From Pristiophorus japonicus (taxonomy: Eukaryota), in NCBI RefSeq assembly GCF_044704955.1, contig NC_091997.1:5890001-5954000 (forward strand): a stretch of DNA of 64,000 nucleotides, read 5' to 3'. The stretch's first letter is position 1, and every line of letters starts with the position of its first letter. The translations under genes were made by a program, and so were the position numbers. Positions 9,651 to 55,715 of the stretch are shown here, in pieces. The notes below the pieces were generated by a model that did not search any database, was not told the origin of the DNA, and was given only the letters and a program-made list of their open reading frames with translations.

Positions 9651-9867
9651 CTTATTGCGGAAATCCTTGCATTAAGACACAAAGCCTTCAGGCTTGTTTT
9701 TTTAACACCCTTTGTCCTTTTAGAATTTTGTTGTACAGTGGCCCTTTTTGTTCTTTGCCTTGGGTTTCTCTGCCCTCCACTTTCCTTCATCTCCTTTCTG
9801 TCTTTTGCTTTTGCCTCCTTTTTGTCTCCCTCTGTCTCCCTGCATAGGTTCCCATCCCCCTGCCATA

Positions 9868-18015: not shown

Positions 18016-18109
18016 GGCGGGTGTTCTGAGTGCTGTAGCAGATCAGAGACTGAAGACCGGGAGTTCACATCAGTCGTGTTTGTGAGAAGTGATAGAAGAG
18101 GCAGAGACA

Positions 18110-18772
18110 ATGCTGAGCTGTCGGGCTGTCCACCCTTCACGTCTGTGCCAGCAGCCTGTGTGCACATTGTGGCCTGTCCCACACACAGTCTTTGAGCCGT
18201 TTGAATGCAACAGGTGGGAACAGGAGGAAGAAGTGAGAAAGATCATGAACTTCATGAACCGAGTTCTTGGGGAGCTGGCCAAAGAATTCTGGGAGGGAAG
18301 ACCAAAATATCAGGACAACAGACCTGATGATAATGAAGACGGTAAAAGCCAATCAGAGGGCAAGGATGGAGATGGCTTTTCTCTGTCCCTGGATGTCCAG
18401 CAGTTCTCCCCAGAAGAACTGAAGGTGAAAGTATTTGGAAGAAAAGTGCTGGTGACAGGAAAACACGAGAAGAAAAGTGATGATGGGAGCGGCTCTTACA
18501 GCTACAAATATGAAGAGTTCAGGAGAGAATTTCAGCTGCCAGAAGATGTCGATGCTCAAGCTCTTAACTGCTGTTTGTCACAGGACGGTCGGTTAAAGGT
18601 TCAAGCCCCACGCCTGGCACTGCCAGCTGTGAATGGACGAACCGTCCCCATCAACATCACCTCTGATACAACAACCGCTCCCCGGCTAAACCCAGGCAAA
18701 GAGGCACAGAAACAGGACGGTGGAAAGGATGAGGGGAACAAGGAAGAGGCGGAAGCAAAAAAGGATATTTAA
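18110..18772 (+). CDS. hsp30: Small heat-shock protein, Hsp30-like, intronless (copy 1; C-tail ...EAEAKKDI)
   Basis: Alpha-crystallin domain FSLSLDVQQFSPEELKVKV...FRREFQLPEDVD...LSQDGRLKVQAP and IXI-like VPI motif. The ATG at 18110 is the likely start; the track start is a GTG. Confidence 0.92.
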   Translation: MLSCRAVHPSRLCQQPVCTLWPVPHTVFEPFECNRWEQEEEVRKIMNFMNRVLGELAKEFWEGRPKYQDNRPDDNEDGKSQSEGKDGDGFSLSLDVQQFSPEELKVKVFGRKVLVTGKHEKKSDDGSGSYSYKYEEFRREFQLPEDVDAQALNCCLSQDGRLKVQAPRLALPAVNGRTVPINITSDTTTAPRLNPGKEAQKQDGGKDEGNKEEAEAKKDI

Positions 18773-24543: not shown

Positions 24544-24637
24544 GGCGGGTGTTCTGAGTGCTGTAGCAGATCAGAGACTGAAGACCGGGAGTTCACATCA
24601 GTCGTGTTTGTGAGAAGTGATAGAAGAGGCAGAGACA

Positions 24638-25300
24638 ATGCTGAGCTGTCGGGCTGTCCACCCTTCACGTCTGTGCCAGCAGCCTGTGTGCACATTGTGG
24701 CCTGTCCCACACACAGTCTTTGAGCCGTTTCAATGCAACAGGTGGGAACAGGAGGAAGAAGTGAGAAACAGCATGAACTTCATGAACCGAGTTCTTGGGG
24801 AGCTGACCAAAGAATTCTGGGAGGGAAGACCAAAATATCAGGACAACAGACCTGATGACAATGAAGACGGTAAAAGCCAATCAGAGGGCAAGGATGGAGA
24901 TGGCTTTTCTCTGTCCCTGGATGTCCAGCGGTTCTCCCCAGAAGAACTGAAGGTGAAAGTACTTGGAAGAAAAGTGCTGGTGACAGGAAAACACGAGAAG
25001 AAAAGTGATGATGGGAGCGGCTCTTACAGCTACAAATATGAAGAGTTCAGGAGAGAATTTCAGCTGCCAGAAGATGTCGATGCTCAAGCTCTTAACTGCT
25101 GTTTGTCACAGGACGGTCGGTTAAAGGTTCAAACCCCACGCCTGGCACTGCCAGCTGTGAATGGACGAACCGTCCCCATCAACATCACCTCTGATACAAC
25201 AACCGCTCCTCGGCTAAACCCAGGCAAAGAGGCACAGAAACAGGACGGTGGAAAGGATGAGGGGAACAAGGAAGATGCGGAAGCAAAAAAGGATATTTAA
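24638..25300 (+). CDS. hsp30: Hsp30-like small heat-shock protein (copy 2; C-tail ...DAEAKKDI)
   Basis: Intact ORF nearly identical to copy 1; AATAAA at ~25471. Confidence 0.92.
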   Translation: MLSCRAVHPSRLCQQPVCTLWPVPHTVFEPFQCNRWEQEEEVRNSMNFMNRVLGELTKEFWEGRPKYQDNRPDDNEDGKSQSEGKDGDGFSLSLDVQRFSPEELKVKVLGRKVLVTGKHEKKSDDGSGSYSYKYEEFRREFQLPEDVDAQALNCCLSQDGRLKVQTPRLALPAVNGRTVPINITSDTTTAPRLNPGKEAQKQDGGKDEGNKEDAEAKKDI

Positions 25301-26730: not shown

Positions 26731-29700
26731 TGTTAAGTTCAGAATAACTCCACGAGACTGTGTTGTAAGCTCAAACCATTGTGACCTTGGTCTCTTTAAT
26801 ATAACTCCAAAATCAGGCAGCAGCATGGTGGACTGCCTTTTGTACCTGCTTGCTCCAGGGTACACAGGTGACTCATAGGTCTCACACAGGTGTGGCCCCT
26901 AGTGGCAAGTCTTAAAACAGGTGAGGTTCACATACATAACATCACTTCTCCCCAAAATCTTGAGTACAAGTTATTTACAGGTTGAGGCGATCCGGGGCTC
27001 TGCGTTCCCGGGTCGATTGCCTGAGTTGAAATCTTGGCCTGGGTGAGTGGGTTGGATCATTGCTGCGCTGCGGTGTGGCTGGTCTGATCGGACTGTCGGG
27101 CACGGTGGGTTCATCCTCGTGGTTGACAGCGAGGTCAATTTCTGGTTGGATGTGTGTTGGTGGATCATAGATGGTAGGGTCTTCTTCAAACTGTTCTTGG
27201 TAGTCCGTGAATCGCAGTTTGGTCTGATCCAGGCGCATGTTTGCCCATTCAGCAATTTCACAACAAACACTCTATTCCCCTCCTTGGCTAAGACAGTGCC
27301 AGCAACCCACTTGGGACCGTGACCATAATTTAGAACAAACACCGGATCATTAACCTCAATGTCACGCGAGGCCGCCGCGTGATCGTGGTACACGCTATGC
27401 CTTTGCTGTCGGGTATCTACGTGATCATTGAGATCTGGGTGAACTAAGGAGAGCCTGGTTTTGAATGCTCTCTTCATTAACAATTCTGCAGGGGGAACCC
27501 CGGTGAGCGAGTAAGGGCGTGTCCGGTAGCTGAACAGGACCCTAGATAACCGAGTCTGCAAGGAGCCGTCCGTTACGCGTCTCAAGCTTTGCTTGATTGT
27601 TTGGACTGCCCGTTCCGCTTGGCCGTTGGATGCAGCCTTAAATGGGGCAGACCTGACATGCTTGATGCCATTGCAGGTCATGAACTTGTTGAATTCCAAG
27701 CTGGTGAAACATGGTTCATTGTCACTGACAAGGTCGTCAGGCAAATCATGGGTGGCGAACATGGCCCTGAGGCTTTCAATGGTGGCACTGGACGTACATG
27801 ATGACATTATTATACATTCAATCCATTTTGAGTAAGCGTCCACTACTACTAGAAACATCGTCCCTGGAAAGGGGCCAGCGAAATCTACGTGGACCCTGGA
27901 CCATGGTTTGGAGGCCCATGACCACAGGCTCAAGGGGGCCTCCCTGGATGCGTTGCTCAGCTGTGAGCAAGTGTCGTATTGGTGTACGCATGACTCTAAT
28001 TCAGAGTCAATGCCATGCCACCAGACGTGCGTCCTGTCGATAGCCTTTATCATGACTATGTAGGTTGCTGTGTAGGTTGCGTATAAACGTTTCCCTGCCC
28101 TTTTTGGGCAAAATCACGTGATTCTCCCATAGGAGGCAATCCGACTGGACTGACAGTTTGTCCTTGTGTCGGTGAAAAGTCTGAATTTCCTTTTGCATTT
28201 CCCCAGGAACCCCCGACCACCTCCCATTGAGGATGAATCTTTTTATTAGTGATAGCAGGGGGTCTTGGCTGGTCCAGGTCCTGATCTGGCGAGCCGTGAC
28301 AGGTGACCCCTCGCTCTCAAAAGCATCCGTTACCAGAAGCAAGTCTGCGGGTTGTGCCACTTCCATCCCGGTGGTGGGCAATGGCAGCCGACTGAGGGCA
28401 TCAGCACAGTTCTCCGTGCCTGGTCTGTGGTGGATTACAGAGTCGTACGTAGATAACGTTAGTGCCCATCTTTGGATGCGGGATGAAGCATTGGTGCTGA
28501 TATCTTTGCTTTCTGAGAGCAGTGAAGTAAACAGTTTGTGGTCGGTTTCGAGGTCGAACCGGAGGCCAAATAGATATTGGTGCATTTACTTAACCCCTTT
28601 TACACAAGTCATAGCTTCTTTCTCAACCATACTGTAGGCTCTTTCAGCCTTGGATAAACTTCTGGATGCATATGCAACCGGTTGCAGTTTGCCTGTAACA
28701 CACAACCGACCCCGTACGACGAATCACAAGCTAGTACTAAACGTTTACACGGGTCATACAATACAAGTAACTTGTTAGAGCATAGCAGGTTTCTGGCCTT
28801 GTTAAAGGCTGTCTCTTGAGATTTACCCCAAACCCAGTCGGCACCCTTGCGTAGCAACAAATGCAAGGGTTCCAGCAAAGTGCTCAACCCCGGTAGAAAG
28901 TTACCAGGAACGAACGCAGCTCCGTCACATTCTGTGGTCTGGGTGCATTCTTGATGGCCTCCGTCTTGGAGTCTGTGGGTCTGATGCCGTCCGCCGCAAT
29001 CTTTCTGCCCAGAAATTCGACCTCTAGCGCCAGGAGAACACACTTGGAGCATTTCAGCCTGAGTCCCACTCTGTCCAGTCGCTTTAGAACCTCTTCCAGG
29101 TTGTGCAAGTGTTCGGTAGTGTTGCTACCAGTGATCAAGCTGTCGTCTTGAAACACCACGGTGCATGGAACCGATTTCAGCAGACTCTCCATGTTCCTCT
29201 GGAAGATGGCCGCCACCGAGCAAATCCCAAAGGGGCATCGGTGGTACACGAACAGTCCTTTGTGCGTGTTGATGAACGTTAACTTCTTTGATGGTTTAGC
29301 CAACTCCTGTGTCATGTAAGCGGAGGTTAGGTCTAGCTTTGTGAAGGATTTTCGCCCCGCTAGCATTGCGAATAAGTCCTCTGCTTTGGGTAGTGGATAC
29401 TGGTCCTGTAACGAGACTTGGTTGATCGGTACCTTGTAGTCCCCGCAGATTCTGATCGTCCCATCGCTCTTTAGTACCTGCACGATTGGACTGGCCCACT
29501 CGTTGAACTCGACTGGCGATATGATTCCCTCTCGTTGAAGTCTGTCCAGCTTGATTTCAACTTTCTCTCGCATCATATATGGGACTGCTTGGGCCTTGTG
29601 ATGAACGGGCCGTGCCCCAGGAACAAGATGGATCTGCACTTTGGCGCCTGTGAAGTTGCCGATGCCTGGCTCAAAGAACGCCGGGAATTTGTTTAGCACC

Positions 29701-31188
29701 TGGGCGCACAGAGGGTCATCCACCAAGGACAGTGCTTTGATATCGTCCCAGTTCCACCGGATCTTGCCTAGCCAGCTCCTGCCGAACAGCGTTGGGCCAT
29801 CGCCTGGTACAATCCATAGTGGTAAATCATGCACCCTTCCGTCATACGATTCTTTCACTGCCACGCTGCCGATAACAGGTATGAGTTCTTTGGTGTAAGT
29901 GCGCAGCGTAGTGTGAATTGGGCTCAGTTTTGGCCTCTGTGCCTTGTTACTGCACAGTTTCTCAAACGCCTTGGCTCATAATCGAGTGACTCGCCCCCGT
30001 GTCCAATTCCATGGAGACTGGAATGAAATTAAGTTTGGCTATTAACATTATTGGAGGGCTTTTGGTGGTGAAGGTGTGCACCCCATACACTTCCTTCTCA
30101 TCCTCCGGTTGAGTTGCCTCACCTGCTCGTTCAGTGTGACCCACGCTGGATCGGTCGCTCTCTGCTGACTCTGCCACGTGGTGAGTCCGAGGTTGCTTGC
30201 ACATTCGCTGGAGGTGCCCCATTGTTCCACAGCCCTTGCACACATAGTGCTTGAATCGACATTGATGGGCTCTGTGACTGCCCCCGCATTAGCACTCCCC
30301 AGCGGCCTCTGAGTCACCCTAGGCCTGGCCTCTGCGGTCGTGTGGGCCCTACTATGTACAGTTCTGCCTGCTGAGGGCATTATTTTATGCACAGTACTTG
30401 CCGGTGAGCTTCGGTTCTGTGAAGATATCTGTTTCGTGTTGTCGCTCGTGGATATGAAGGCCTGGGCTATCATGATGGCCTTGCTCAGATCTAAGGATTC
30501 GGCAGACAGCAGTTTGCGGAGGATGGCCCCGTGGCCGATTCCGAGCACGACAAAGTCCCACAACATTTCCCCCAAAGATCCTGCAAATTCGCACTGCCCC
30601 GCTCGGCGTCTTAAGTCGGCAACAAAGCTCGCCACGTTATGGCCCCCGGAGCGATGGTGCGTGTAAAAGCACTACCTGGCCAATAAGATGTTCTCCTTCG
30701 GCTGGATGTGTTCTCGAGCCAGCGCAGACAGCTCTGTGTAAGTCTTGCCGATGGTTTGTCTGGGACCAGTAGATCTTTGAGGAAACCCTATACCGACGAC
30801 CTGCATGTGGTGAGGAGAATCGCCCTGCGCTTGGTCTCCGTCTCAGCCATGTCCAGCTCATTCGCCATGAAGTACTGGTCGAGACACTCAACGAAGGCTT
30901 CCCAATCATCACCCTCAACAAATCTCTCAAGAATACCAACGGCAGCCATTTCCGAGTGAAAGTTCATGATCTGTAACTCGTTAAATTCAGAATAACTCCA
31001 CGAGACTGTTGTAAGCTCAAACCATTCTGATGTTGGTCTCTTTAATATAACTCCAAAGTGAGGCAACAGCATGGTGGACTGCCTTTTATACCTGTTTGCT
31101 CCAGGGTACACAGGTGACCCATAGGCCTCCCAGATGTGTGCCCCCTAGTGGCAAGTCTTACACGCAGGTGAGGTTCACATGCATAACA
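26731..31188 (-). mobile_element. Full-length but decayed Gypsy/Ty3 LTR retrotransposon (Mag-like): gag, PR, RT, RNase H, IN
   Basis: LTRs 26731-26941 and ~30980-31188; 5-bp TSD AGTCC; PPT next to 26941; MELDTGAS (PR), FTKLDL and FQDD (RT), ETDHK and NCADALSR (RNase H), HVDFAGP, VSDN and SNGQAER (IN); several frameshifts; PBS partly deleted. Confidence 0.95.
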
Positions 31189-31648
31189 AGTCCCATTCCT
31201 GCTCTTTCTCTATATCCCTGCAATTTTACCTCCTTCAAATATTTATCCCATTCCCTTTTGAAGGCTACGACTGAATCTCTCTCCATCAGCCTATCAGGCA
31301 GTGCGACCCAAATCCTAACCATAGTCAAAAGTTTTTCCTCACGTTGTCTCTTGTTCTTTTGCCAATTTCCTTAAATCTGTGCCCTCTCCTGATCGACCCT
31401 GTGTAATAATTCTCGCAGTGTCAGTCAGCGGTTAGATTGCTTCGGTAAATTTACTGTGTTACAGCATCGGACAAACTGCTCGTGTTTAGGCTGCTGCAGG
31501 ACAGCTGGAAACATCAATAACCGTATCACAGCTCCCAGAGTACACATGAGCAATGCCACAGGAGATCGAGTAGTAAAGTATTAAATGGTGTACAATCTGT
31601 AAACTCTCAATATGAACTTAAATCAACTCTGGAATATATTTAATTGTT

Positions 31649-31972
31649 TTTTTAAATTTTATTATTCGTAGCCAATCTTTCCAATTCTTTAGTCAAATCA
31701 CAAACGCCAGAGGTCACCTTGCACACATCAAGGATCACTCTGCGCCAATGCTCTTAGCCAAAAGGCCGAGAGCCCAAGCACCATTCCTGGAAGTACTGCA
31801 ATACCAGGTTCGTGCCATGGAGGTGGATGGGTCAAGCCACCCCACCCACCTCCTATTTCCAAAAAGCATAGGAGAACCACCTTCCTGATCCAGAGAGAAC
31901 CACTTTGGGGTCATGGTTACTCCCCTGTCAGGTCAGTTACGCATGATCTTAGCCAAAAGGCCGAGAAGCGAT
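31649..31972 (-). mobile_element. U2/U1 snRNA-chimeric retroposon (SINEU-like), copy a
   Basis: Minus strand begins ATCGCTTCTCGGCCTTTTGGCTAAGATCA (U2 nt 1-29); U1-like and U2 3'-half segments follow; A-rich tail; TSD atttaattgtt(t)n at 31638 and 31973. Confidence 0.82.
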
Positions 31973-31983
31973 ATTTAATTGTT

Positions 31984-32337
31984 TTTTTTATTTTTTATTT
32001 TTATTTATTTATTTATTTATTTTTAAATTTTTCGTTGCCAATCTTTCCAATTCTTTGTCAAATCACAAACGCCAGAGGTCACCTCGCACACATCAAGGAT
32101 CACTCTGCGCCAATGCTCTTAGCCAAAAGGCCGAGAGCCGCTGCACCGTTCCTGGAAGTACTGCAATACCAGGTTTGTGCCGTGGAGGTGGATGGGTCAA
32201 GCCACCCCACCCACCTCCTATTTCCAAAAAGCATAGGAGAACCACCTTCCTGATCCAGAGAGAACCACTTTGGGGTCATGGTTACTCCCCTGTCAGGTCA
32301 GTTACACATGATCTTAGCCAAAAGGCCGAGAAGCGAT
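31984..32337 (-). mobile_element. U2/U1 snRNA-chimeric retroposon (SINEU-like), copy b
   Basis: Near-identical to copy a with an (AAAT)n/A tail; both copies are absent from the paralogous site at ~49845-49870. Confidence 0.82.
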
Positions 32338-33959: not shown

Positions 33960-34622
33960 TCAACAGTCCTCATTCCTTTCAGCCTGTGTCTTGTTCTCAA
34001 CAACCAGGCCCCTGTCCTGTTTCTGTGCCTCTTTGCCTGGGTTTAGCCGGGGAGCGGTTGTTGTATCAGAGGTGATGTTGATGGGGACGGTTCGTCCATT
34101 CACAGCTGGCAGTGCCAGGCGTGGGGCTTGAACCTTTAACCGACCGTCCTGTGACAAACAGCAGTTAAGAGCTTGAGCATCGACATCTTCTGGCAGCTGA
34201 AATTCTCTCCTGAACTCTTCATATTTGTAGCTGTAAGAGCCGCTCCCATCATCACTTTTCTTCTCGTGTTTTCCTGTCACCAGCACTTTTCTTCCAAGTA
34301 CTTTCACCTTCAGTTCTTCTGGGGAGAACCGCTGGACATCCAGGGACAGAGAAAAGCCATCTCCATCCTTGCCCTCTGATTGGCTTTTACCGTCTTCATT
34401 GTCATCAGGTCTGTTGTCCTGATATTTTGGTCTTCCCTCCCAGAATTCTTTGGCCAGCTCCCCAAGAACTCGGTTCATGAAGTTCATGATCTTTCTCACT
34501 TCTTCCTCCTGTTCCCACCTGTTGCATTGAAACGGCTCAAAGACTGTGTGTGGGACAGGCCACAATGTGCACACAGGCTGCTGGCACAGACGTGAAGGGT
34601 GGACAGCCCGACAGCTCAGCAT
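33960..34622 (-). CDS. hsp30: Hsp30-like small heat-shock protein (copy 3; C-tail ...QAERNEDC)
   Basis: Intact ORF with alpha-crystallin domain. Confidence 0.92.
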   Translation of the reverse strand: MLSCRAVHPSRLCQQPVCTLWPVPHTVFEPFQCNRWEQEEEVRKIMNFMNRVLGELAKEFWEGRPKYQDNRPDDNEDGKSQSEGKDGDGFSLSLDVQRFSPEELKVKVLGRKVLVTGKHEKKSDDGSGSYSYKYEEFRREFQLPEDVDAQALNCCLSQDGRLKVQAPRLALPAVNGRTVPINITSDTTTAPRLNPGKEAQKQDRGLVVENKTQAERNEDC

Positions 34623-34716
34623 TGTCTCTGCCTCTTCTATCACTTCTCACAAACACGACTGATGTGAACTCCCGGTCTTCAGTCTCTGATCTGCTACAGC
34701 ACTCAGAACACCCGCC

Positions 34717-36155: not shown

Positions 36156-37666
36156 GTTACTCGCTGCTTGCACTCACCACCTTGCTGCTGTTGCTCCCAC
36201 TCTGTGGCAAATGCTGGTCCCATCCCCACCCCACTCTCCCTTTCTATCCCCCAAACCCCATTCCCCTGTCTTGATCACTCTCCCCGATCACCCATTCCCC
36301 ATTCTCCTTCTCTTTCCCTGAGCCCCCATTCCCCTTTCTGTCTGTTTTTACCCCCACTCTCAATTCCCGACTCTCCCCGGCCAGTTGGGAATCTCTGCCT
36401 GAGCTGGCACTGAGCAGCACCCAGTGACAAGCTCCATGGAACGCCGGCAAATGATTCTCATTAAAATTAACACGGTTTAAGATCATTCTGACTCCCATCC
36501 CCAGGCTAACAGTCGGTAACTACTCACAGCACCTCACATGTGTGTCGGCAAGGGATAAAACTGACAGCATGAAAATAATTGGATTCACTGATGACAAGTA
36601 GCAATAGAAGCAGCGCTTGGGAGAGGAATACCCGATTCCTGGAAACTCCTGGTCATTCCAGGAAGGTTGGGAAGCCGAGTTGGGAGTGTTACAACCACAT
36701 TACTTGTAGGGCCACCATTGCTGTTCATTTAATATCACAATTCACTAGATACTTAAAACATTGCAATGTTTTATCAATAAACTCAATTATATTCATTCTT
36801 TTAGTTCTGTCTAATGCCGAACAAGTTTATTACCTAAATTAGATGGCAGTCTTGGTTGAGGCACTCGTCCCTGAGCCAGAAGGAGTTGGGTTCAAGCCCC
36901 AGTCTATCGGACTCAGCACATAATTTAGGCTGACACTTCAGTGAGGGAATGCTGCACTGTAGGAGGTGCCATCTTTCAGATGGGACATTAAACTCAAGCC
37001 CCATCTGCCCTCTTGGGTGGAAGTAAAAGATCCCATGACACTATTCAAAGAACAGCTGCAGAATTCTCACAGATTCCTGGCCAACATTGGCCCCTCAACC
37101 AAACCCAACAAAAACAGATTATCTGCTCATTTCTCACATTGTGTGTGTGAGACTCTGCTCGTTGTAACATGTGCTGCTGCATGTGGCTACATTGCAACAA
37201 TGACCGCACTTCAAAAGGATTTAATCGGATGTGAAGCACTTTGAGATATCCTGAGTGCATGGAAGGTGCTATATCAATGCAAATTCTTGCTTTCTTTATA
37301 CAGAAATAATATATTTTTAAACATAAATTCGTGGAAAATAAAGCTGCGATGAGTTTCGAAAGAAATTATATATTTTATTATGAGATTCGCAAATACAACA
37401 AAAATATAATAAAATTCTGATGAATATAGAATCATACAGCATAGATGGATTCCATTCAGAGATTTGTACTTTAGTCCCACAATATACAACTTAAAATATA
37501 ACGCTCGTAATCAAGAAAAGATATTGTTAACAGAAAGCATTTTTCAGACATACAGAATGAACAGAATGAATCACTTATTTAGTTTTACACAAATTCACTT
37601 GAATCTCATTTCCACCGGTATAAAATTGCTCTGTGATGTGCGGCACAAGTTCACTGTAAATGAGTA

Positions 37667-38323
37667 TCAACAGTCCTCATTCCTTTCAGCCTGTGTCTTG
37701 TTCTCAACAACCAGGCCCCTGTCCTGTTTCTGTGCCTCTTTGCCTGGGTTTAGCCGGGGAGCGGTTGTTGTATCAGAGGTGATGTTGATGGGGACGGTTC
37801 GTCCATTCACAGCTGGCAGTGCCAGGCGTGGGGCTTGAACCTTTAACCGACCGTCCTGTGACAAACAGCAGTTAAGAGCTTGAGCATCGACATCTTCTGG
37901 CAGCTGAAATTCTCTCCTGAACTCTTCATATTTGTAAGAGCCGCTCCCATCATCACTTTTCTTCTCGTGCTTTCCTGTGACCAGTACTTTTCTTCCAAGT
38001 ACTTTCACCTTCAGTTCTTCTGGGGAGAACTGCTGAACATCCAGGGACAGAGAAAAGCCATCTCCATCCTTGCCCTCTGATTGGCTTTTACCGTCTTCAT
38101 TGTCATCAGGTCTGTTGTCCTGATATTTTGGTCTTCCCTCCCAGAATTCTTTGGCCAGCTCCCCAACAACTCGGTTCATGAAGTTCATGCTGTTTCTCAC
38201 TTCTTCCTCCTGTTCCCACCTGTTGCATTCAAACGGCTCAAAGACTGTGTGTGGGACAGGCCACAATGTGCACACAGGCTGCTGGCACAGACGTGAAGGG
38301 TGGACAGCCCGACAGCTCAGCAT
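37667..38323 (-). CDS. hsp30: Hsp30-like small heat-shock protein (copy 4; 6-nt in-frame deletion removing SY)
   Basis: Intact ORF; GSGSYKYEE versus GSGSYSYKYEE in the other copies. Confidence 0.92.
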   Translation of the reverse strand: MLSCRAVHPSRLCQQPVCTLWPVPHTVFEPFECNRWEQEEEVRNSMNFMNRVVGELAKEFWEGRPKYQDNRPDDNEDGKSQSEGKDGDGFSLSLDVQQFSPEELKVKVLGRKVLVTGKHEKKSDDGSGSYKYEEFRREFQLPEDVDAQALNCCLSQDGRLKVQAPRLALPAVNGRTVPINITSDTTTAPRLNPGKEAQKQDRGLVVENKTQAERNEDC

Positions 38324-38417
38324 TGTCTCTGCCTCTTCTATCACTTCTCACAAACACGACTGATGTGAACTCCCGGTCTTCAGTCTCTGATCTGCTACAG
38401 CACTCAGAACACCCGCC

Positions 38418-38586
38418 TTATATATTCCACTCCCAGAACTCCAGACACTTCCAGAATTAGCTCAACATTGCTGGGGTTATGACACGTGAGCAGAAAATAA
38501 CCGAGGTCTCATCTCAGCCTTGCTTTAAACAAGAATGACTGGGATTCAGTGACACCCACTGGTGCAATTCCAGAGACTTGTGGAAT
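38418..38586 (-). promoter_or_regulatory. HSE/TATA promoter of hsp30 copy 4
   Basis: Same motifs as the copy 3 promoter. Confidence 0.76.
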
Positions 38587-39191
38587 GTACTCACCCAGTG
38601 ACACCACAGGTGGGAGGGGCAAATGATTGACAGCCCAGAACAAGGCAGACTGTGTGGTAAAGGGGTGTTTGCTGAGAAGTGGATGTGTTCAATTTAGTGA
38701 ACGATCAACTAACATTGTGAGATAATGAAGAGTCGGTCAGTGACTTTCTAGCTCTGCTATTTTCAGTCATGTTCAAGATATTAAAGTGATATTTAACCAC
38801 AGCAGAGCAGAGTGATCAGAAAGAATGAAATTCAGATCAGTTTGGTTTAAATTAAGTGGTGTTCTGATTCTGCCCAATAGAGGGTCATTAATTCCCTTGT
38901 AATTTAATTAATTTGTGTGAGACTTATCTTCAGTTTACAGAGTTCAGACTTGTGGAACCGACAATTCAAAAGAGATGGATATAACTTTTACCCTCACGGG
39001 GTAATCCTTACTTTAGAACAATAACACGGGTACAAGTAACAATAATAGCATGTCTTACAGTTTATCTACTTTGCATTCAAGTAATTTTAAGCAAAAACCC
39101 ACGTGTAGCTAATACCAACGGTGGTCAGGTTCTCAGTGATCTACTCGGTGGCTCTCCACAGCCCCGTATCACTTTCTTCACAGCGCAAGTA

Positions 39192-39850
39192 CATCATCAT
39201 TATCATCATCAGAGGCAGTCCCTCGGAATCGAGGAAGCCTTGCTTTCACTCTAAAAGTGAGTTCTCAGGTGACTGAGGAGTCCAAGGCGGGAATCACAGT
39301 CTCTGTCGCAGGTGGGACAGACAGTGGTTAAAAGAAAGGGTGGGTGGTGAGTCTGGTTTGCCGCACACTCCTTCCACTGCCTGCACTTATTTTCTGCCTG
39401 CTCTCACCGCCGGGATTCGAGGTGCTCAGCGCCCTCCCGGATGCTATTCCTCCACTTATGGAGGTCTTTGGCCAGCGTCTCCCAGGTGTCGGTCGGCATG
39501 TTGCACATTATCAAGGAGGCTTCGGGTGTGTCCTTGAAACGTTTCCTTTGCCGAGCTGGGAGTTCCAAGTAGAACGCTTGCGTTGGGGTCTTGTGTCGGG
39601 CATACGAACAATATGGCCCGCCCAACGGAGCTTGTCGAGTGTGGTCAGTGCTTCTGACGTTGGCCTGATCGAGAACACTGACGTTGGTGCGTCTGTCCTC
39701 CCAGAGGATTTGCAGGATCTTGCGGAGACACCGTTGGTGGTATTTCCCGAGCGATTTGACCATAAGCTTGGTGCCAGATTTGAGGTGACCGAAGGCTGCG
39801 CTGGTGCACTGGAGGCAGTGTTGAACCTCGTCGCCAATGTCTGCACTTGC
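39192..39850 (-). mobile_element. RTE LINE 3' fragment
   Basis: (CAT)n tail; SLGKYHQRCLRKILQI; LRWAGHIVRMPD. Confidence 0.88.
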
Positions 39851-40183
39851 TGATAAATGCAAGTACTGCTAAAACTTGGCAACTGGCCCACTACGTGCGT
39901 GTGTTTTTCTTCACTTTCTGATTATCAATAGTCCTTTCATTAAAAGAAAAAGTAATGTCTGAGAAAAGGTTGTTTTCACCCAGCTTTATCGGGGCCCAAG
40001 TGGTGAGAATAGTCTGAAGAACGGTCGGTTGAATAGCTTTCCTTTTCTCACAGACACTTCCCAAGGTCTCCTTTCTGAAAAGCGGTCTTGCAGCTGCAGT
40101 ATTTCTCACCTGGCCTCGCCAGGTATACTGGGTTATCAGAATTTGGTCAGCTTTTAAGTTCGGCCATTTTAAAACACAGTGAC

Positions 40184-43100
40184 TGTCATATATCGAGACA
40201 TGTGATGTGCCACCAGAGGGCACTACTATGGGAAACTTGTACAGCAGCTGTATGGTCACTGAGGTGTGCCACCAGAGGGCACTGCAGTGGGAGACTTGTA
40301 GGTTACCTGTACAGGTGTGCCTGGCCTAGTATAAAAGGCAGGCCGCCATGTATGATCTTCACTCAGGAGTTATATTAAATGGACTTAGGTCACTACAGTT
40401 CAGGTGCAATACATTGCCTCGTGGAGTCATTATCAGAGCATCTAAAGACATAACAATTGGCGACGAGATTACGGACTATCACGCGAAAATGGCTACCCTT
40501 GGTACGTTGCAGCAGTTCGCCGATGGTGACAATTGGGATGCCTTTGTGGAGAGGCACGACCATTCCTTCACAACAAACGACCTGGCAGACGATAATTTGG
40601 ACACACTGGCTGCTCACCAGTTGTGGGCCCACCGTCTATGGCCTCGTCAGGGACTTGCTGGCACCAGCGAAGACAACGACCAAGACATACGAGGTGCTCG
40701 TAACTCTGATCCAAGAACAACTCAAGCCCAAGGTGAGCATCCTCACAGCCAGACACCGGTTTTATACCCACCGACGGCCCGAAGGCCAGGAAATCGCAAA
40801 ACATGCTGCAGACCTCAGGAGGCTGATGGCAACGTATGATTTCGGCGGACACCTCACCGAAGCGCTGTGGGATATCTTTGTCATCGGAATCGGCCACGAG
40901 GGCCTTCTTCACAGGCTACTGTCGGCGGATACCACAGTCACACTGCAGAAGGCCATCTCCGTGAGCCAGGCATTCATGACCTCGACCTGCGGCTTTAGGC
41001 AGATGACTCATCCTCAGGACTCAAACCCGGCAAGTACCAGCACAGCACCCGAGGCACAGAGCGCTCAGCACGACTGCGTGGAGATGATCCAGCTGAGACA
41101 ACCCAAACGCACCTTCATGGCTCCAGTGGCAGGACTCCGGAGGAAGAAAACCGGATCCAAAGGCGACTTCCCAGCATCGGTGGCAGAACCTGGGAAGAAG
41201 AGGATCACAGCAGTCGGCATCGTGGATGGAAGAAAGATGGCGCCCAAACCACGAGGTGAATCGCTGAAGAAAAAGATAGCGGCAGCCAGACCACGAGGTG
41301 CAGCGCTGATGGAGCAACACGTGGTACCAAGCGAAGAAGAGGATTGGGGTAAAGATAGCAAGGCTCCCATAAAGGAGGCCAGCAAACCACCACACTTAAA
41401 GGGACAGTCTACAGTCTCAATCAATGTAATAGTAACTGTGAATTCAATGTAAAGCTTGTAATTGATGATCAGAGTTTTATACGTGTAATAAGCAAAGAAA
41501 AGTCATGTGATTGCGATCGGAGCTACAGTTTATCTACAATAAGTAATGAAACGCTGTGCGATGTAGGATTTCAACAGTATTCAGATAATGTAGCGGGCAA
41601 ACACCCATCGGGAGCACACAAGTTCAGCGGGCTAACCAATGCTGTTGCCTGTGTCCCTGGGACCAGAGTGATGCACCACGGAGTGTGGCCAAAAGCGGCT
41701 AATATAGACAAGCTGCAGAGCACGCGATCTCAGGAGGGCAATGGCACCGGTATCGATACCCTGCCCCTGATCGGCTCCACCTCTCAGGCACCCGATGGCA
41801 CCAACCGCCACGAGCCTGAAAGAGCAAACTGTGCTAAGGCGCAGTCCCCAGACCCTATCGCCTCCAAGGCTACACCTGCAATGGTTCTCCCAAATGGGAC
41901 CGGGACCAGCCAGCATCCCAAACCAAGTAACGCCCAGGCAAGCGAATCATAGAAACATAGAAAGTAGGTGCAGGAGTAGGCTAGTCAGCCCTTCAAGCCT
42001 GCACCACCATTCAATATGATCATGGCTGAACATGCAACTTCAGTACCCCATTCCTGCTTTCTCTCCATACCCCTTGATCCCTTTAGCCGTAAGGGCCACT
42101 ACTAACTCCATTTTGAATATATCTAACAAACTGGCCTCAACAACTTTCTGTGGTAGAGAACTCCACAGGTTCACAATTCTCTGAGTGAAGAAGTTTCTCC
42201 TCATCTCAGTCCTAAATTGCTTACCCTTTATCCTTAGACGGTAACCCCTGGTTCTGCACTTCCCCAACATCGGGAACATTCTTCCTGCATTTAACCTGTC
42301 CAATCCCGTCAGAATTTTATATGTTTCTATGAGATCACCTCTCATTCTGCTAAATTCCAGTGAATATAAGCCTAGTCGATCCAGTGTTTCTTCATATATC
42401 AGTCCTGCCATCCCAGGAATCAGTCTGGTGAACCTTCGCTGCACTTCCTGAATAGCAAGAATGACCTTCCTCAGATTAGGAGACCAAAACTGAACACAAT
42501 ATTCCAGATGTGGCCTCACCAAGGCCCTGTACAACTGCAGTAAGACCTCCATGTTCCAATACTCAAATCCTCTTGCTATGAAGGCCAACATGCCATTTGC
42601 CTTCTTCACCGCCTGCTGTACCTGCATGCCAACTTTCAATGACTGATGTACCACGACACCCAGGTCTCATTGCACCTCCCCTTTTCCTAATCTGTCACCA
42701 TTCAGATAATATTCTGCCTTCCTGTTTTTGCCACCAAAGTGGATAACCTCACATTTATCTACATTATACTGCATTTGCCAAACATTTTCCTACTCATCTA
42801 ACCTGTCCAAGTCACCCTGCAGCCTCTTAGCATCCTCCTCACAGCTCACACTGCCACCCAGCTTTGTGTCATCTGCAAACTTGGAGATATTACATTCAAT
42901 TCCTTCGTCTAAATCATTAATGTATATTGTAAAGAGCTGGGGTCCCAGCACTGAACCTTGCGGTACCTCACTAGTCACTGCCTGCCATTCTGAAAAGGAC
43001 TCGTTTATTCCTACTCTTTGCTTCCTGTCTGCCAACCAGTTCTCTATTCACGTCAATACATAACCCCCAGTACCATGTGCTTTAATTTTGCACACTAATC

Positions 43101-44367
43101 TCTTATGTGGGACCTTATCAAAAGCCTTTTGAAAGTCCAAATACACCACATCCACTGGTTCTCCCTTGTCCACTCTACTAGTTACATCCACAAAAAATTT
43201 TAGAAGGTTTGTCAAGCATGATTTCCATGCTGACTTGAACCGATCCTGTCACTGCTTTCCAAATGTGCTGCTATTACATCTTTAATAATTGATTCCAACA
43301 TTTTACCCACTACCGATGTAAGGCTAACCAGTCTATAATTCCCTGTTTTCTCTCTGCCTCCTTTTTTAAAAAGTGGGGTTACGTTAGCTACCCTCCAGTC
43401 CATAGGAACTGATCCAGAGTCGAGAGAATGTTGGAAAATGACCACCAATGCATCCACTATTTCTCGGTCAGCAGTTCCCTGCGCACTGCTAGATGACTGC
43501 CCCTCAGGGAGCAGCAACGACCCGGGGCAGAAGGAAAGAACAGGGAGATCACAGGCATCTGTGAACTTGCCCTATGCTAGGAGCAACAGCATAGGCCCAG
43601 AGAGCAGGCAACTTGAGCCACCCGGGCCCCCACTGCCAGCACTGGGCACTGCGCCACCACCAGACTACCTGGACACCATCCAGCAGTTCTGGTACTAGCT
43701 TGTCCTCACGCACCGGTGCTGACACCAGTACTGAGTCCAACTATGTATCAAGAATGTATCTCACCAGTCAAGTGTACTTGCCTCACAACTGTACCACAAA
43801 TGTAATGATGTAAATGCAAATTAATTTTTTTCTGGACTTGAATGTATATGAATGTAACTAGCCACCAGCATAATCTATATGTGGGGCGGGGGTGGAGAGA
43901 ATGGAATGGTCATGGACTCACAAACAGAAACCACCAGCACCTCTACTGCCAACGAAACACCACCTACTCACCCAAGATGGAAACGACCCTCCAAGCGCCA
44001 ATCAGATAGAGCTAAGCCCAGAGCACAGTCGATGTATGAAGGCGATTTGCAACAAGGACTTAGGCGAGAGTGATGTCATGTATCTAGACATGTGTACTGC
44101 TTGTACTATTACATATGATGTGCCACCGGAGGGCACTACTATGGGAAACTTGTACACCAGCTGTAAGGTCACTAAGGTGTGCCACCAGAGGGCACTTCAG
44201 TGGGAGACTTGTAGGTTACCTGTACAGGTGTGCCTGGCCTAGTATAAAAGGCAGGCCACCATGTGTGATCTTCACTCAGGAGTTATATTAAATGGACGAA
44301 GGTCACTACAGTTCAAGTGCAATACATTGCCTCATGGAGTCATTATCAGAGCATCCAAAGACATAAT
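40184..44367 (+). mobile_element. Non-autonomous Gypsy-type LTR element (LTRs 40184-40455 and 44074-44367) with gag remnant and nested CR1
   Basis: TG...CA 5' LTR; PBS TGGCGACGAG (40458-40467), complementary to the 3' end of tRNA-Ser(GCU); gag-like ARHRFYTHRRPEGQ...LRRL...IFVIGI; no RT or integrase; TSD not recognisable. Confidence 0.88.
41948..43464 (-). mobile_element. 5'-truncated CR1 nested in the LTR element
   Basis: Tail catagaaacatag; ORFs 42040-42654, 42790-43035 and 43212-43517. Confidence 0.92.
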
Positions 44368-45404
44368 TTACAGCAAAAGAAAATGCTGTAGTCTTACATT
44401 TGCTCAGGTGCTTTGCTATGGGAATGTTTTGCTGACCAGTTTTCCGAGATGATGGAGTGATGGCTTTCACATTCCTACAGTCTGGAGGAGATGTTCCATG
44501 GACATTGTTTTGTAGCCAGAAATTACACGGTTTGATAATGTTTATAAGTCTATCATAATAAATAGTTTGGTAGTTACAGAAAATTCAGCCAAACACTGAC
44601 TGCCGGACAGACTAACGTTTCACCAGATGTGAGCATGAGGATATTTATATTCCAAGGGATACCCCACTCAATGGATGGCCCAGCCCACTGAGTTCCCTAT
44701 CTCAGGCAGCTTTCAGTGAACCTAATCCCCGATTGATCCCAAACTATCTCCCAGTGTAATTCTTTGTGCCGTAGCGAGCTTGAAATTTGTTGCTATATCT
44801 CTATTCTTGTTTCCTCCATGCCCGTCCCTAATCCTGAAATTAGTTTTTCATAAATAAGTAAAATTATATCATGATTCCCTTTTGTTATTCAGTATCCTAA
44901 AATCCGTTAACAACATAAATGCACATTTTCTTAAACAGGTTTCCGATGAGAACTGGTGATGAGGACAATAGTGAACCCCATGGCTGAATAACCTCCTGTT
45001 TAAGTCACTCCCTGCTTCTTTACTGGGAGGCAAAGATACTGAGAATTCAACTGAGCCATTGTCACAAACTAAGAATTCTGGGAGACAAAAGATCCTCGAT
45101 TGCATTTATTGTATAAACACAAAATCATCTGAGGCAGAGCTCCAGGTAGGCCCCTCCCACCTGTGATGTCACTCAGTCAGGACATGCCAGAAGTCTCTGG
45201 AATTGTGCCGCAATGTCATTGGGTGAAGTCATTCTTTCCTGCTCACCTGACATGAACCCAGCAATCTTCATTGTGGAAGTGTGTGGATTGCTGGGAGTGC
45301 AATATATAAGGCGGGTGTTCTGAGTTCTGCAGCAGATCAGAGACTGAAGACTTGGAGTCGACAGGATTCGGGTTTGAGAGAAGTGATACTTAGAACAAAC
45401 AGCC

Positions 45405-47721
45405 ATGGTGCTGAGCTTTCAGGTGTCCCAGTCTTCACATGTGAGCCAGCAGCCTGCAGTCACTCTGAGGCTGCTCCCACACAGTATCTTTGAACAGCTC
45501 GAACACAACAGGCCGAAAGCAGTGGTGGAAGCAAGGAAGACCATGTATTGGCTTCATGAGCTGCTGGCAAAAGGATTGTCGGAGCTAAGATCAAAATATC
45601 AGGACAATGGTACTGATGTCATAGAAACATAGAAACATAGAAAATAGGTGCAGGAGTAGGCCATTCAGCCCTTCGAGCCTGCACCGCCATTCAATGAGTT
45701 CATGGCTGAACATGCAACTTCAGTACCCCATTTCTGCTTTCTCGCCATACCCCTTGATCCCCCGAGTAGTAAGGACTACATCTAACTCCTTTTTTGAATA
45801 TATTTAGTGAATTGGCCTCAACAACTTTCTGTGGTAGAGAATTCCACAGGTTCACCACTCTCTGGGTGAAGAAGTTTCTCCTCATCTCGGTCCTAAATGG
45901 CTTACCCCTTATCCTTAGACTGTGACCCCTGGTTCTGGACTTCCCCAACATTGGGAACATTCTTCCTGCATCTAACCTGTCTATACCCATCAGAATTTTA
46001 AACGTTTCTATGAGATCCCCTCTCATTCTTCTGAACTCCAGTGAATACAAGCCCAGTTGATCCAGTCTTTCTTGATATGTCAATCCCGCCATCCCGGGAA
46101 TCAGTCTGGTGAACCTTCGCTGCACTCCCTCAATAGCAAGACTGTCCTTCCTCAAGTTAGGAGACCAAAACTGTACACAATACTCCAGGTGTGGCCTCAC
46201 CAAGGCCCTGTACAACTGTAGTAACACCTCCCTGCCCCTGTACTCAAATCCCCTCGCTATGAAGGCCAACATGCCATTTGCTTTCTTAACCGCCTGCTGT
46301 ACCTGCATGCCAACCTTCAATGACTGATGTACCATGACACCCAGGTCTCGTTGCACCTCCCCTTTTCCTAATCTGTCACCATTCAGATAATAGTCTGTCT
46401 CTCTGTTTTTACCACCAAAGTGGATAACCTCACATTTATCCACATTATACTTCATCTACCATACATTTGCCCACTCACCTAACCTAGCCAAGTCACTCTG
46501 CAGCCTAATAGCATCCTCCTCGCAGCTCACACTGCCACCCAACTTAGTATCATCCGCAAATTTGGAGATACATTTAATCCCCTCGTCTAAATCATTTGTA
46601 AACAGCTGGGGCCCCAGCACAGAACCTTCCGGTACCCCACTAGTCACTGCCTGCCATTCTGAATAGTACCCATTTACTCCTACTCTTTGCTTCCTGTCTG
46701 CCAACCAGTTCTCAATCCACGTCAACACGCTACCCTCAATCCCATGTGCTTTAACTTTGCACATTAATCTCTTGTGTGGGACCTTGTCGAAAGCCTTCTG
46801 AAAGTCCAAATACACCACATCAGCTGGTTCTCCCTTGTCCACTCTACTGGAAACATCCTCAAAAAATTCCACAAGATTTGTCAAGCATGATTTCCCTTTC
46901 ACAAATCCATGCTGACTTGGACCTATCATGTCACCTCTTTCCAAATGCGCTGCTATGACATCCTTAATAATTGATTCCATCATTTTACCCACTACTGATG
47001 TCAGGCTGACCGGTCTATAATTCCCTGTTTTCTCTCCCTCCTTTTTTAAAAAGTGGGGTTACATTGGCTACCCTCCATTCCATAGGAACTAATCCAGAGT
47101 CAATGGAATGTTGGAAAATGACTGTCAATGCATCCGCTATTTCCAAGGTCAACTCCTTAAGTACTCTGGGATGCAGTCCATCAGGCCCTGGGGATTTATC
47201 GTCCTTCAATCCAAACAATTTCGCAACACAATTTCCCGACTAATAAGGATTGCTTTCAGTTCCTCCTTATGAAGACGGTCAATGAAGACGGTAAAAGCCA
47301 ATCAGAGGGCAAGGATGGAGATGGCTTTTCTCTGTCCCTGGATGTTCAGCGGCTCTCCCCAGAAGAACTGAAAGTGAAAGTACTTGGAAGAAAAGTGCTG
47401 GTGACAGGAAAACACGAGAAGAAAAGTGATGATGGGAGCGGCTCTTACAGCTACAAATATGAAGAGTTCAGGAGAGAATTTCAGCTGCCAGAAGATGTCA
47501 ATGCTCAAGCTCTTAACTGCTGTTTGTCACAGGACGGTCGGTTAAAGGTTCAAGCCCCACGCCTGGCACTGCCAGCTGTGAATGGACGAACCGTCCCCAT
47601 CAACATCACCTCTGATACAACAACCGCTCCCCGGCTAAACCCAGGCAAAGAGGCACAGAAACAGGACGGTGGAAAGGATGAGGGGAACAAGGAAGAGGCG
47701 GAAGGAAAAAAGGACATTTAA
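45405..47721 (+). pseudogene. hsp30: hsp30-like copy 5 with divergent N-terminus, disrupted by an antisense CR1
   Basis: TATA at ~45302 and ATG at 45405 give MVLSFQ...SKYQDNGTDV; CR1 at 45622-47268; then NEDGKSQSEG...KKDI* to 47721. Confidence 0.88.
45622..47268 (-). mobile_element. 5'-truncated CR1 inserted in hsp30 copy 5
   Basis: (catagaaa)n tail; RT ORFs 45700-46455 and 46456-46992. Confidence 0.93.
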
Positions 47722-48039
47722 GACTCATTTACATTAATATTTTCTCATATATAAGAAACAATATATGCAGAAATTAGTTTAAGACAATGATATGAAGTCA
47801 CAATGCTAAACATTAATTCTTGTTTTTATCTTGTATTTCTGAAATTGTTCACTATGCCATTATTCACATTAGACGGTATTATAATTATATATGTGTATTG
47901 AGCCAATAAATATTTTGGAACAGTGATGTCCATGATTCACCTTGTTAACTTGTTAAATAGATAATATTACACAATTCAAAAACTAGCCACTTACTTCCTT
48001 TCACTCTCAGTAAAGGCACTCATTTGAATTTGGCTTAAC

Positions 48040-48750
48040 TTAGAAACAGAAACAGGATTCAAAAAGTTAGTATGCAGATAGAGCAAGTAATCAGGAAGGC
48101 AAATGGAATGTTGGTCTTTATTGCAAGGGGGATAGAGTATAAAAGCAGAGAAGTCCTGCTACAACTGTACAGGGTATTGGTGAGACCACACCTGGAGTAC
48201 TGCGTACAGTTTTGGTCTCCGTATTTAAGGAAGGATATACTTGCATTGGAGGCTGTTCAGGGAAGGTTCAGTCGGTTGATTCCGGGGATGAGGGGGTTGA
48301 CTTTTGAAGCTAGGTTGAGTAGGTTGGGCTTATACTCATTGCAGTTTAGAAGAATGAGAGATGATCTTCTCGAAACATATCAGATAATGATGGGGCCCGA
48401 CAAGGTGGATACAGAGAGGGTATTTCCACTCATAGGGGAAACTAATACTAGGGACATAGTCTCAGAATAAAGGGCCGCTCATTTCAAACTGAGATGAGAA
48501 GGAATTTCTTCTCAGAGGGTTGTAAATCTATGGAATTCTCTGCCCAGAGAGGTGTTGAGGCTGTGTCATTGAATATATTTGAGGCTGAGATAGACAGATT
48601 TTTGAGTGATAAGGGAATAAAGGGTTATGGGGAGCGGGCAGGGAATTGGAGCTGAGTCCATGATCAGATCAGCCATGATCTTATTAAATGGCAGAGCAGG
48701 CTCAAGGGGCCAGATGGCCTACTCCTGCTTCTATTTCTCATGTTCTTATA
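48040..48750 (+). mobile_element. CR1 3' fragment
   Basis: ORF 48072-48470 [13 protein letters not shown]. Confidence 0.88.
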
Positions 48751-49419: not shown

Positions 49420-50409
49420 CCTGCAATTTTACCTCCTTCAAACATTTATCCCATTCACTTTTGAAGGCTACGACTGAATCTCTCTCCATCAGCCTATCAG
49501 GCAGTGCGACCCAAATCCTAACCAGGCGTCGAGTTAAAACGGTTTTTCCTCACGTTGCCTCTTGTTCTTTTGATAATTTCCTTAAATCTGTGCCCTCTCC
49601 TGATCGACCCTGTGTAATAATTCTCGCAGTGTCAGTCAGCGGTGAGATTGCTTCGGTAAATTTACTGTGTTACAGCATCGGACAAACTGCTCGTGTTTAG
49701 GCTGCTGCAGGACAGCTGGAAACATCAGTAACCGTATCACAGCTCCCAGAGTACACATGAGCAATGCCACAGGAGGTCAAGAAGTAAAGTATTAAATGGT
49801 GTACAATCTGTAAACTCAGAATATGAACTTAAGTCAACCCTGGAATATATTTAATTGTTACACTAGCCAAACACAGCAAGGAATAAAGATTCATGTTGCA
49901 GTCCATAGGAGACGGGTTTGTGTATGGATACAGTCAAGGAACCATTTACCAAGTTATGGTGTTGGGAGTGGGGTTACCAACTCTCCTTGAAGGCATTCCT
50001 GGAGATTTGATCATGTCACATTCTGATCACATGACATCTGAGCATGTGATGCCGGATCATGTGTCATCTGATCACATGATCCAATGTCTATCCCATTCAC
50101 TTTGAAATGTAGTTTTAGTCACTACCTCAATAGCCACATGTGGTGAAGGATCCCACGGTCCAATAGCCGTCAGTTGAAGAAGCTCCCTCCTCCCTTCCAC
50201 CTTGTTTCTTTCAGTGTGAACTTTTGGTTTCCGTTCCTAAATTCCCCATTTGCCTACCAGTGTAATCAACCTTTCACTATTTACCTACAGTGAAGTCTCC
50301 AGGTTTCACGCAGCCCTTTATTGGCTGCTGCTCTCTCAATACCGCTCGCACTCATCACCTTGCTGCTGTTGCTCCCGCTCTGCGGCAAATGCTGGTCCCC
50401 ACCTGCCAT

Positions 50410-52375: not shown

Positions 52376-53193
52376 CCGACCATCACTCCACTTGCACCTG
52401 AACCAGAAGGAGTTGGGTTCAAGCCCCAGTCTATCGGACTCAGCACATAATTTAGGCTGACACTTCAGTGATGGAATGCTGCACTGTAGGAGGCGCCATC
52501 TTTCAGATGGGACATTAAACTCAAGCCCCATCTGCCCTCTTGGGTGGAAGTAAAAGATCCCATGACACTATTCAAAGAACAGCTGCAGAATTCTCACAGA
52601 TTCCTGGCCAACATTGGCCCCTCAACCAAACCCAACAAAAACAGATTATCTGCTCATTTCTCACATTGTGTGTGTGAGACTCTGCTCGTTGTAACATGTG
52701 CTGCTGCATGTGGCTACATTGCAACAATGACCGCACTTCAACAGGATCTAATCGGATGTGAAGCACTTTGAGATATCCTGAGTGCATGGAAGGTGCTATA
52801 TCAATGCAAATTCTTGCTTTCTTTATACAGAAATAATATATTTTTAAACATAAATTCGTGGAAAATAAAGCTGCGATGAGTTTAGAAAGAAATTATATAT
52901 TTTGTTATGAGATTCACAAATACAACAAAAATATAATAAAATTCTCATGAATATAGAATCATACAGCATAGATGGATTCCATTCAGAGATTTGTACTTTA
53001 GTCCCACAATATGCAACTTAAAATATAACGCTCGTAATCAAGAAAAGATATTGTTAACAGAAAGCATTTTTCAGACATACAGAATGAACAGAATGATTCA
53101 CTTTCTCAGTTTTACACAAATTCACTTGAAGCTCATTTCCCCCAGTATAAAATTTCTCTGTGATGTGCGGCACAAGTTCACTGTAAATGAGTA

Positions 53194-55382: not shown

Positions 55383-55715
55383 TGATAAATGCAAGTACTG
55401 CTAAAACTTGGCAACTGGCCCACTGCATGCGTGTGTTTTTCTTCATTTTCTGATTATCAATAGTCCTTTCATTAAAAGAAAAAGTAATGTCTGAGAAAAG
55501 GTTGTTTTCACACAGCTTTATCGGGGCCCAAGTGGTGAGAATAGTCTGAAGAACGGTCGGTTGAATAGCTTTCCTTTTCTCACAGACACTTCCCAAGGTC
55601 TCCTTTCTGAAAAGCGGTCTTGCAGCTGCAATATTTCTCACCTGGCCTCGCCAGGTATACTGGGTTATCAGAATTTGGTCAGCTTTTAATTTCGGCCATT
55701 TTAAAGCACAGTGAC

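Follow-up and report, generated by a model that had tools for sequence, protein, structure and literature searches.

A young U2/U1 snRNA-derived retroposon family of Pristiophorus japonicus and its candidate source copies in U2 gene arrays

Introduction

The closest described relatives of the retroposons analysed here are the SINEU families. According to the accessible text of the original report they are found only in crocodilians and a Keno-related Tx1 helper was inferred for them, while their transcription was left open and flanking promoters were suggested (Kojima 2015, PMC4494074). For snRNA heads, the accessible part of a SINE paper from 2020 cites only this report (PMC7245038). Keno and Utopia are LINEs that insert into U2 genes, with the Keno insertion junction located ~37 nt into U2; both are autonomous, and no SINE partner is mentioned in the accessible text of the two papers (PMC4640811, PMC6136364). 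The closest working analogue is provided by the R2 SIDEs of Drosophila, i.e. deleted LINEs with a ribozyme that reside in the rDNA (PMC3414825). Processed pseudogenes of U2 and U1 and snRNA-L1 chimeras also exhibit snRNA sequence, poly(A) and target duplications, but they arise singly (Kojima 2015).

Here we investigate a pair of retroposons in a window of 64,000 nucleotides, which denotes the whole stretch of DNA that was analysed, and the corresponding U2/U1 family in the 5.92-Gb genome that harbors it. Both this family and SINEU-1, -2 and -3 with Tx1-Mar represent short poly(A) retroposons with a U1/U2-derived head, and they are alike in the repeated gain and duplication of snRNA pieces, in tandem insertion, internal oligo-T, the absence of a LINE-like tail and a putative Keno-group Tx1 partner deduced from shared targets. 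A sister family, family B, resembles SINEU-3 in its modified U2 and short tail. The differences concern the target, which is the U2 gene itself instead of a Mariner element, the host, given that SINEU was not found outside crocodilians (Kojima 2015), the order of the pieces (U2-U1-U1-U2-U2-tail), the very young age and the presence of candidate sources at U2 +1, whereas the mode of transcription was left open for SINEU. We consider the U2/U1 family a variant of SINEU. Its origin is likely to be independent of the crocodilian elements, with which it was compared by description.

The partner LINE described below shares with Keno the 3' junction ~37 nt into U2 and the APE-type endonuclease, but unlike in the Keno/Utopia setting the majority of its copies, and almost all of the SINE copies, lie scattered across the genome. 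Like the R2 SIDEs, the U2/U1 family is non-autonomous, occurs in a multicopy RNA-gene array and combines, as far as can be judged, host-gene transcription with a site-specific LINE; unlike them, it contains no LINE sequence, is derived from the target RNA itself and has spread genome-wide. In contrast to processed pseudogenes and chimeras, its subfamilies inherit their junctions. Searches of the open literature retrieved no description of a U2-homing SINE or a fish SINEU; Repbase, Dfam and subscription papers may hold entries.

Anatomy of the tandem copies

An earlier note, made from the letters of the window alone, had proposed two tandem U2/U1 chimeric copies on the minus strand, and both are confirmed at 32337-32030 (copy A) and 31972-31665 (copy B) in head-to-tail orientation with an A-rich tail after each. 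Copy A comprises 308 nt and is full length from U2 nt 1. Its head (32303..32337) is an exact match to U2 nt 1-29, just as stated, and U2 likeness continues to about nt 35. The head is followed by a first U1 piece (32260..32302; U1 nt 3-46), whose splice-site-pairing motif is indeed altered by a T-to-G change, a second U1 piece (32236..32255; U1 nt 28-47, 19/20 bases), the U2 3' half (32140..32233; U2 nt 97-187) with an Sm-like U run, a 13-bp remodelled stem III and stem IV, a second U2 5' stem (32114..32136; U2 nt 7-29), a tail that is homologous to the one of family B (32030..32113) and an A-rich tail (31984..32029). Copy B (31665..31972), which is also full length from U2 nt 1, exhibits the same architecture and ends with an A-rich tail of its own (31649..31664). 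U2 nt 30-96 are replaced, so that the branch-point sequence and stems IIa/IIb are lacking and the element is not a normal U2 gene; the earlier statement that the branch-point motif is absent is borne out, and the head of copy A is also devoid of the Keno target site. An snRNA upstream flank is missing from the window copies. The two copies are 93% identical with tails included in the alignment, differ at more than 10 positions and have one rare base in common; relative to the majority of 28 close copies, six differences are found in copy A and seven in copy B.

The U1, U2 and U6 genes of this genome served as reference snRNAs, and significance was taken from 2000 shuffles. The proposed pieces U1 3-46, U1 28-47, U2 97-187 and U2 7-29 each beat 2000/2000 shuffles, with an alignment score of 57 versus a shuffle maximum of 34 for U1 nt 3-46. 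Rfam recovers U2 in copy A with 76.3 bits and in copy B with 70.4 bits, both above the gathering score (cut-off 46); U1 is recognized only weakly (19.7 bits, E 0.9), as nothing but the U1 5' stem is present. At positions where the U1 sequence quoted in the earlier note deviates, the U1 piece follows the U1 of this genome, which speaks for a local origin. A series leading from near-intact U2 via family B to the U2/U1 family is present within the genome. The segment of ~90 nt that had been left unassigned keeps this status, since the tail matches neither U1, U2, U6, Rfam families nor the partner LINE significantly. A search against U1 and U2 in both orientations yielded no match, an origin from U6 was rejected (best p 0.08 versus the U6 of this genome; p 0.64 for the tail of family B), and Rfam applied to the tail alone returned only two weak matches far below their gathering scores.

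Insertion history and surroundings of the pair

Copy B is bracketed by a duplicated target of 11-13 bp, which refines the boundary of the element. The left copy lies between the two elements (31973..31983) and the right copy at 31638..31648, both on the minus strand. A paralogous empty site (49849..49870, minus) contains the target once, together with the 5 bases that are missing at the 5' side of copy A. A second empty paralog is located just outside the window (locus L322). Copy A occupies the same nick in front of B with 5 bases missing on the 5' side, and the window site accordingly displays both duplication (B) and truncation (A) of the target. The simplest reading is that the pair represents two independent insertions at one nick, B first. 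A tandem duplication was rejected as the source of the pair, in spite of the rare base in common, in view of more than 10 differences and an empty site that fits two insertions, and tandem stacking of family copies is common in the sample examined.

The window also contains a cluster of HSP20-family small heat-shock genes (18086-18772, 24614-25300, 33960-34646, 37667-38347 and 53194-53880) with partial copies at 47281-47721 and 62807-63247 and one more in L322. They occur in both orientations, their proteins are 92-100% identical to the one encoded at 33960-34646, and the SINE pair sits in the downstream flank of one HSP20 unit. The segments 36870-48474 and 52397-64000 are 99.1% identical over at least 11.6 kb and represent a recent duplication or possibly an assembly duplicate. 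An LTR-retrotransposon-like element with reverse transcriptase and integrase frames adjoins the SINE pair (26971-31200). A LINE at 7368-10864, which we take to be CR1/L2-like, harbors an endonuclease-reverse transcriptase frame and an upstream GDSL-esterase-like frame, and partial copies of it are found elsewhere in the window.

Size and subfamilies of the U2/U1 family

The existence of a U2/U1-derived family in this genome is near certain. Its 18-nt tail motif has 5,540 exact matches genome-wide compared with 0 for the reversed control, thus indicating at least 5,540 copies and disposing of the scenario, named in the earlier note, that only two copies exist. In a DNA search, 40 of 2,101 candidates were scored and most matches listed are near full length with 93-97% identity. 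The family consists of a U2 head, two U1 pieces, the U2 3' half, a second U2 stem, the tail and poly(A); its members are short (<500 bp) and non-coding, have their junctions in common and are dispersed in thousands of copies with variable 5' truncation and several young subfamilies. These traits support the assignment of copies A and B to a young SINE-like snRNA-derived retroposon family. Of the two options of the earlier note the SINE family is hence supported, and retrocopies of a chimeric small RNA are a weak alternative, given that all candidate sources that were found retain the A-tail and interrupt a U2 gene.

A sample of 98 copies, taken from 100 listed tail-motif places that are all on contig C1, was examined individually. 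Their 5' starts fall within nt 1-15 (48 copies), at the base of stem III (35), between these two regions (10) or further 3' (5). A target duplication is detectable in 57/98 copies with a median length of 15 bp among the 52 without a tandem flag, a few short ones of which could be due to chance. The subfamilies, which are set by a tail loop, show a median divergence of 0-0.8% over 128 nt.

Family B is represented by 587 matches. In the 30 copies examined, it combines a near-complete U2 with a second U2 piece, which ends at nt 38 in the most U2-like variant, and a short tail that is homologous to the tail of the U2/U1 family (p 0.0005). The history likely began with a short sequence inserted at U2 nt 38 and continued with a complete U2 being placed before it; later on, U1 pieces probably replaced U2 nt 30-96, and duplications occurred in the stem and the tail.

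The partner LINE and shared insertion sites

An A-tail that runs directly into U2 nt 38 is found at 58 places genome-wide, and at most ~1% of the family copies sit at this site. Among the first 30 places, the 3' flank belongs to family B in 18 and to a genuine U2 gene in 12 cases, and the preceding element is a member of the U2/U1 family (20), a LINE (8) or family B (2; L065, L072). The LINE has a size of 5.7 kb with open frames of ~584 and ~1147 codons, and an intact copy is located in the U2 array. Pfam assigns ZCCHC3/CCHC domains to ORF1 and an endonuclease, which is of the APE type, a reverse transcriptase and zf-RVT to ORF2, an arrangement that we take to be the Tx1 layout. Among the loci retrieved, 13 LINE 3' ends are joined to genuine U2 nt 38. 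This base is the junction of an intact LINE as well as of SINE copies. Domain layout and insertion site suggest that the partner LINE is a Keno-type Tx1 element. Its best full-length protein relatives are 38-49% identical, none of those listed being named Keno, and a short segment of the LINE protein shares 81% identity with a part of a horn shark protein.

The LINE 3' motif occurs 126 times. A U2/U1 family copy directly follows 10/30 dispersed LINE ends by eye and 8/30 under a strict rule; from the remaining 22 ends, 4/22 have a flank that matches a SINE flank in another repeat; 300 control draws gave 0.02 on average and never more than 1. The SINE target RY^A, which resembles the U2 site, was found at 23/36 sites versus a background of 35% (p 0.0004), with a bias to A after the nick that is partly built in by the A-tail. 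L1-type targeting of TT^AAAA was rejected, TT^A being present at 1/36 SINE sites. The comparison of the 3' segment with a LINE end, as proposed in the earlier note, revealed nothing in common with the partner LINE beyond the A-tail. Because the SINE and LINE tails share no sequence, the LINE presumably recognises the SINE RNA via poly(A). The shared-target and tail comparisons covered one Keno-type LINE among the genomic Tx1/L1 families. As indirect evidence for a mobilisation of the family by a Tx1 LINE, they are on the level of the original SINEU paper.

Several further observations pertain to the LINE. Recurrent hotspots in other repeats that received both SINE and LINE comprise three sets of loci: L134, L156, L169, L217 and L260; L101, L141, L205 and L209; and L098 and L215. 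The short LINE 5' UTR carries an exact octamer motif directly behind the U2 head (L082:4100-4135, minus), and tandem LINE copies start headless at this octamer-bearing 5' UTR. A second diverged LINE variant, 74-89% identical to the array LINE, is joined to U2 nt 38 in genes of contig C9 (L317, L319).

Candidate source copies in the U2 arrays

Two types of U2 genes were observed. Type 1 is arranged in a tandem array (~770 bp), has microsatellite spacers and lacks a clear PSE; type 2 comprises the C9 genes, which are ~20 kb apart and exhibit a PSE-like motif (L085, L188-L195 and L087). The main array contains 290 starts with an identical upstream flank type, and in 17/290 of them (~6% of units) U2 nt 1-28 runs straight into the SINE body of a sister subfamily, followed by the A-tail and U2 nt 38-191. 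The array loci retrieved, which were picked around matches, comprise 54 intact units, 11 with a LINE and 17 with a SINE. Among the 17 SINE units, which stand in register behind the U2 flank, 15 are identical over 340 nt and the remaining two deviate at 2 bases. One more unit, with 5 differences, is located behind the unrelated C9-type U2 flank.

The array-type tail occurs 212 times. Thirty dispersed copies with this tail were examined; they are 97.9-100% identical to the array unit, 26/30 start within nt 1-12, and no U2 flank was seen in the 25 bases upstream of any of them. The dispersed copy L271 corresponds to the variant of the 15 units at 336/336 bases, and 28/29 long dispersed copies lack this commonest array variant and have older bases instead. 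A window-type head was not found behind either U2 flank (0/18 and 0/17), and the only window-type copy inside a U2 gene has lost ~470 nt of the proximal flank; the flank-linked candidate sources belong to a sister subfamily and not to that of the window. The branch-point sequence and the Keno target site are spoiled by two changes in all 11 array LINE heads and deleted in the U2/U1 family; family B retains both and has received insertions there.

The upstream flank of the main array revealed no clear PSE or octamer, and a comparison of the main-array U2 and U1 flanks provided no convincing common PSE. The U1 genes of this genome have an octamer at about -205, and the C9-type U2 flank shows an 11/17 match to the U6 element in register. 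The main flank probably acts as a promoter because it precedes intact, top-scoring U2 genes. Among the public sequencing runs, none recorded as RNA from Pristiophorus japonicus holds the stretch, and 15 public runs with a 0.05 share of words were discarded as evidence for the element.

An orphan array piece on contig C14 (L323:33-8006) consists of a LINE end, the U2 3' part, spacer and a fused U2 head, in which U2 is joined to a few bases of the LINE 5' end and the 3' half of another SINE variant; two full LINEs come after the fused SINE. No target duplication was seen around this piece, which is a possible source locus outside the arrays.

Truncation hotspot and Sm site

The second cluster of 5' ends comprises 35/98 copies that start between -8 and +8 bases of the stem III base, about half of them within the 5' strand of stem III, and the Sm site adjoins this hotspot directly upstream. 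In a subfamily with a changed Sm-like run, 0/12 copies start at the hotspot versus 35/86 in the rest (p 0.004). The proportion is 3/30 in the array-tail set, which has 4 loci in common with the 98-copy sample, and 3/30 copies of family B start at U2 nt 110-113. In the minimum-energy fold of the array unit (z -6.4), the Sm run pairs with the tail; the mean probability of this pairing is 0.34 in the array subfamily and 0.01-0.08 in other groups of three or more copies, with one single copy at 0.31.

A block just upstream of the hotspot fits these starts better than exonuclease trimming, because trimming should halt before stem III. The sequences suggest that an Sm ring bound to the SINE RNA may block reverse transcription and cause the hotspot; the difference between the subfamilies could also stem from their age or from another helper.

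Proposed cycle and alternative explanations

The distribution of SINE and LINE copies is probably best explained by source copies in the U2 arrays that would be transcribed from the host U2 promoter and mobilised in trans by the Keno-type LINE. The U2 head would let the cDNA join the 5' end of a host gene, so that the SINE then starts at U2 +1. RNA polymerase II would synthesize the SINE RNA from the U2 promoter, and the LINE protein would take it by the A-tail. Binding of an Sm ring would block reverse transcription and create the truncation hotspot, and the loss of U2 nt 30-96 would have taken away the branch-point sequence together with the element's own target site. Source units would be amplified and removed by turnover of the array, which would account for the replacement of one subfamily by the next and for the lack of a visible present-day source for the window's subfamily. 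Several results weigh against this cycle: none of the public runs recorded as RNA from this species holds the stretch, the main-array flank is devoid of a clear PSE or octamer, window-type heads were not found behind either flank, at most ~1% of the copies sit at U2 nt 38, 28/29 long dispersed copies lack the commonest array variant, SINE and LINE have no 3' sequence in common, and the Sm run pairs with the tail at a mean probability of only 0.34.

An unlikely alternative employs the same LINE and assumes that dispersed copies with chance upstream promoters or LINE read-through are the sources, and that the array copies are passengers multiplied by turnover of the array. Flank-driven transcription has been proposed for SINEU-2 (Kojima 2015, PMC4494074), numerous copies immediately follow a LINE 3' end, the array flank is without a clear PSE, and the window's subfamily lacks a flank-linked source. 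However, full-length dispersed copies that start at U2 nt 1-15 show no common 5' extension in the flanks inspected, L271 bears the array-specific variant, and SINEs are found in register behind two unrelated U2 flanks.

It is very unlikely that the element has its own internal promoter for polymerase III or II and does not need the host gene, even if its 5' ends cluster near nt 1 as in ordinary SINEs and the octamer-like motif in the LINE 5' UTR documents that internal elements exist in the system. Rfam detects no tRNA, 5S or 7SL match and hence no classical polymerase III head, and polymerase III would terminate at the internal stretches of at least four T (nt 15-18 and Sm site), an argument that was also raised for SINEU in the original report, according to which an internal snRNA promoter is unknown (Kojima 2015, PMC4494074).

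Highly improbable is the idea that the array units constitute a variant snRNA gene that was domesticated for a function of its own, with the dispersed copies as its retrocopies. The units are nearly identical, have a strong fold (z -6.4) and retain stems I, III and IV, but they bear long A-tails of variable length, interrupt U2 at the LINE cut site and have lost both splicing-pairing motifs; the fast subfamily turnover and a large share of words in one organism only (run index) also contradict this function. A separate origin of each copy by template switching between snRNAs and LINE RNA, for which jumps to snRNA are known (PMC3414825; Kojima 2015, PMC4494074), is extremely improbable and largely refuted by the junctions and diagnostic changes common to the copies and by the subfamily median divergence of 0-0.8%.

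The array-based cycle agrees with dispersed copies that are 98-100% identical to the array SINE units and lack their flank. In a broader sense, the family may, with the balance about even, exemplify an external-cycle class of SINEs that homes to its parent gene at U2 +1, uses the snRNA promoter, undergoes concerted evolution in the array and acts as an Sm-bound snRNP mimic; its subfamilies would delete the LINE target and the branch point from the head and weaken the Sm site to escape the block of reverse transcription.

Significance

If the proposed cycle is true, it answers how SINEUs are transcribed, a question that has been open since 2015 and is directly testable with 17 near-identical flank-linked units, an intact LINE in the array and diagnostic bases. 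A protein ring bound to a retroposon RNA may have left its genomic footprint in the truncation hotspot. With the U2/U1 family, SINEU would have arisen a second time, and likely independently, among vertebrates, and the family would be a case of a SINE that parasitises a spliceosomal gene array.
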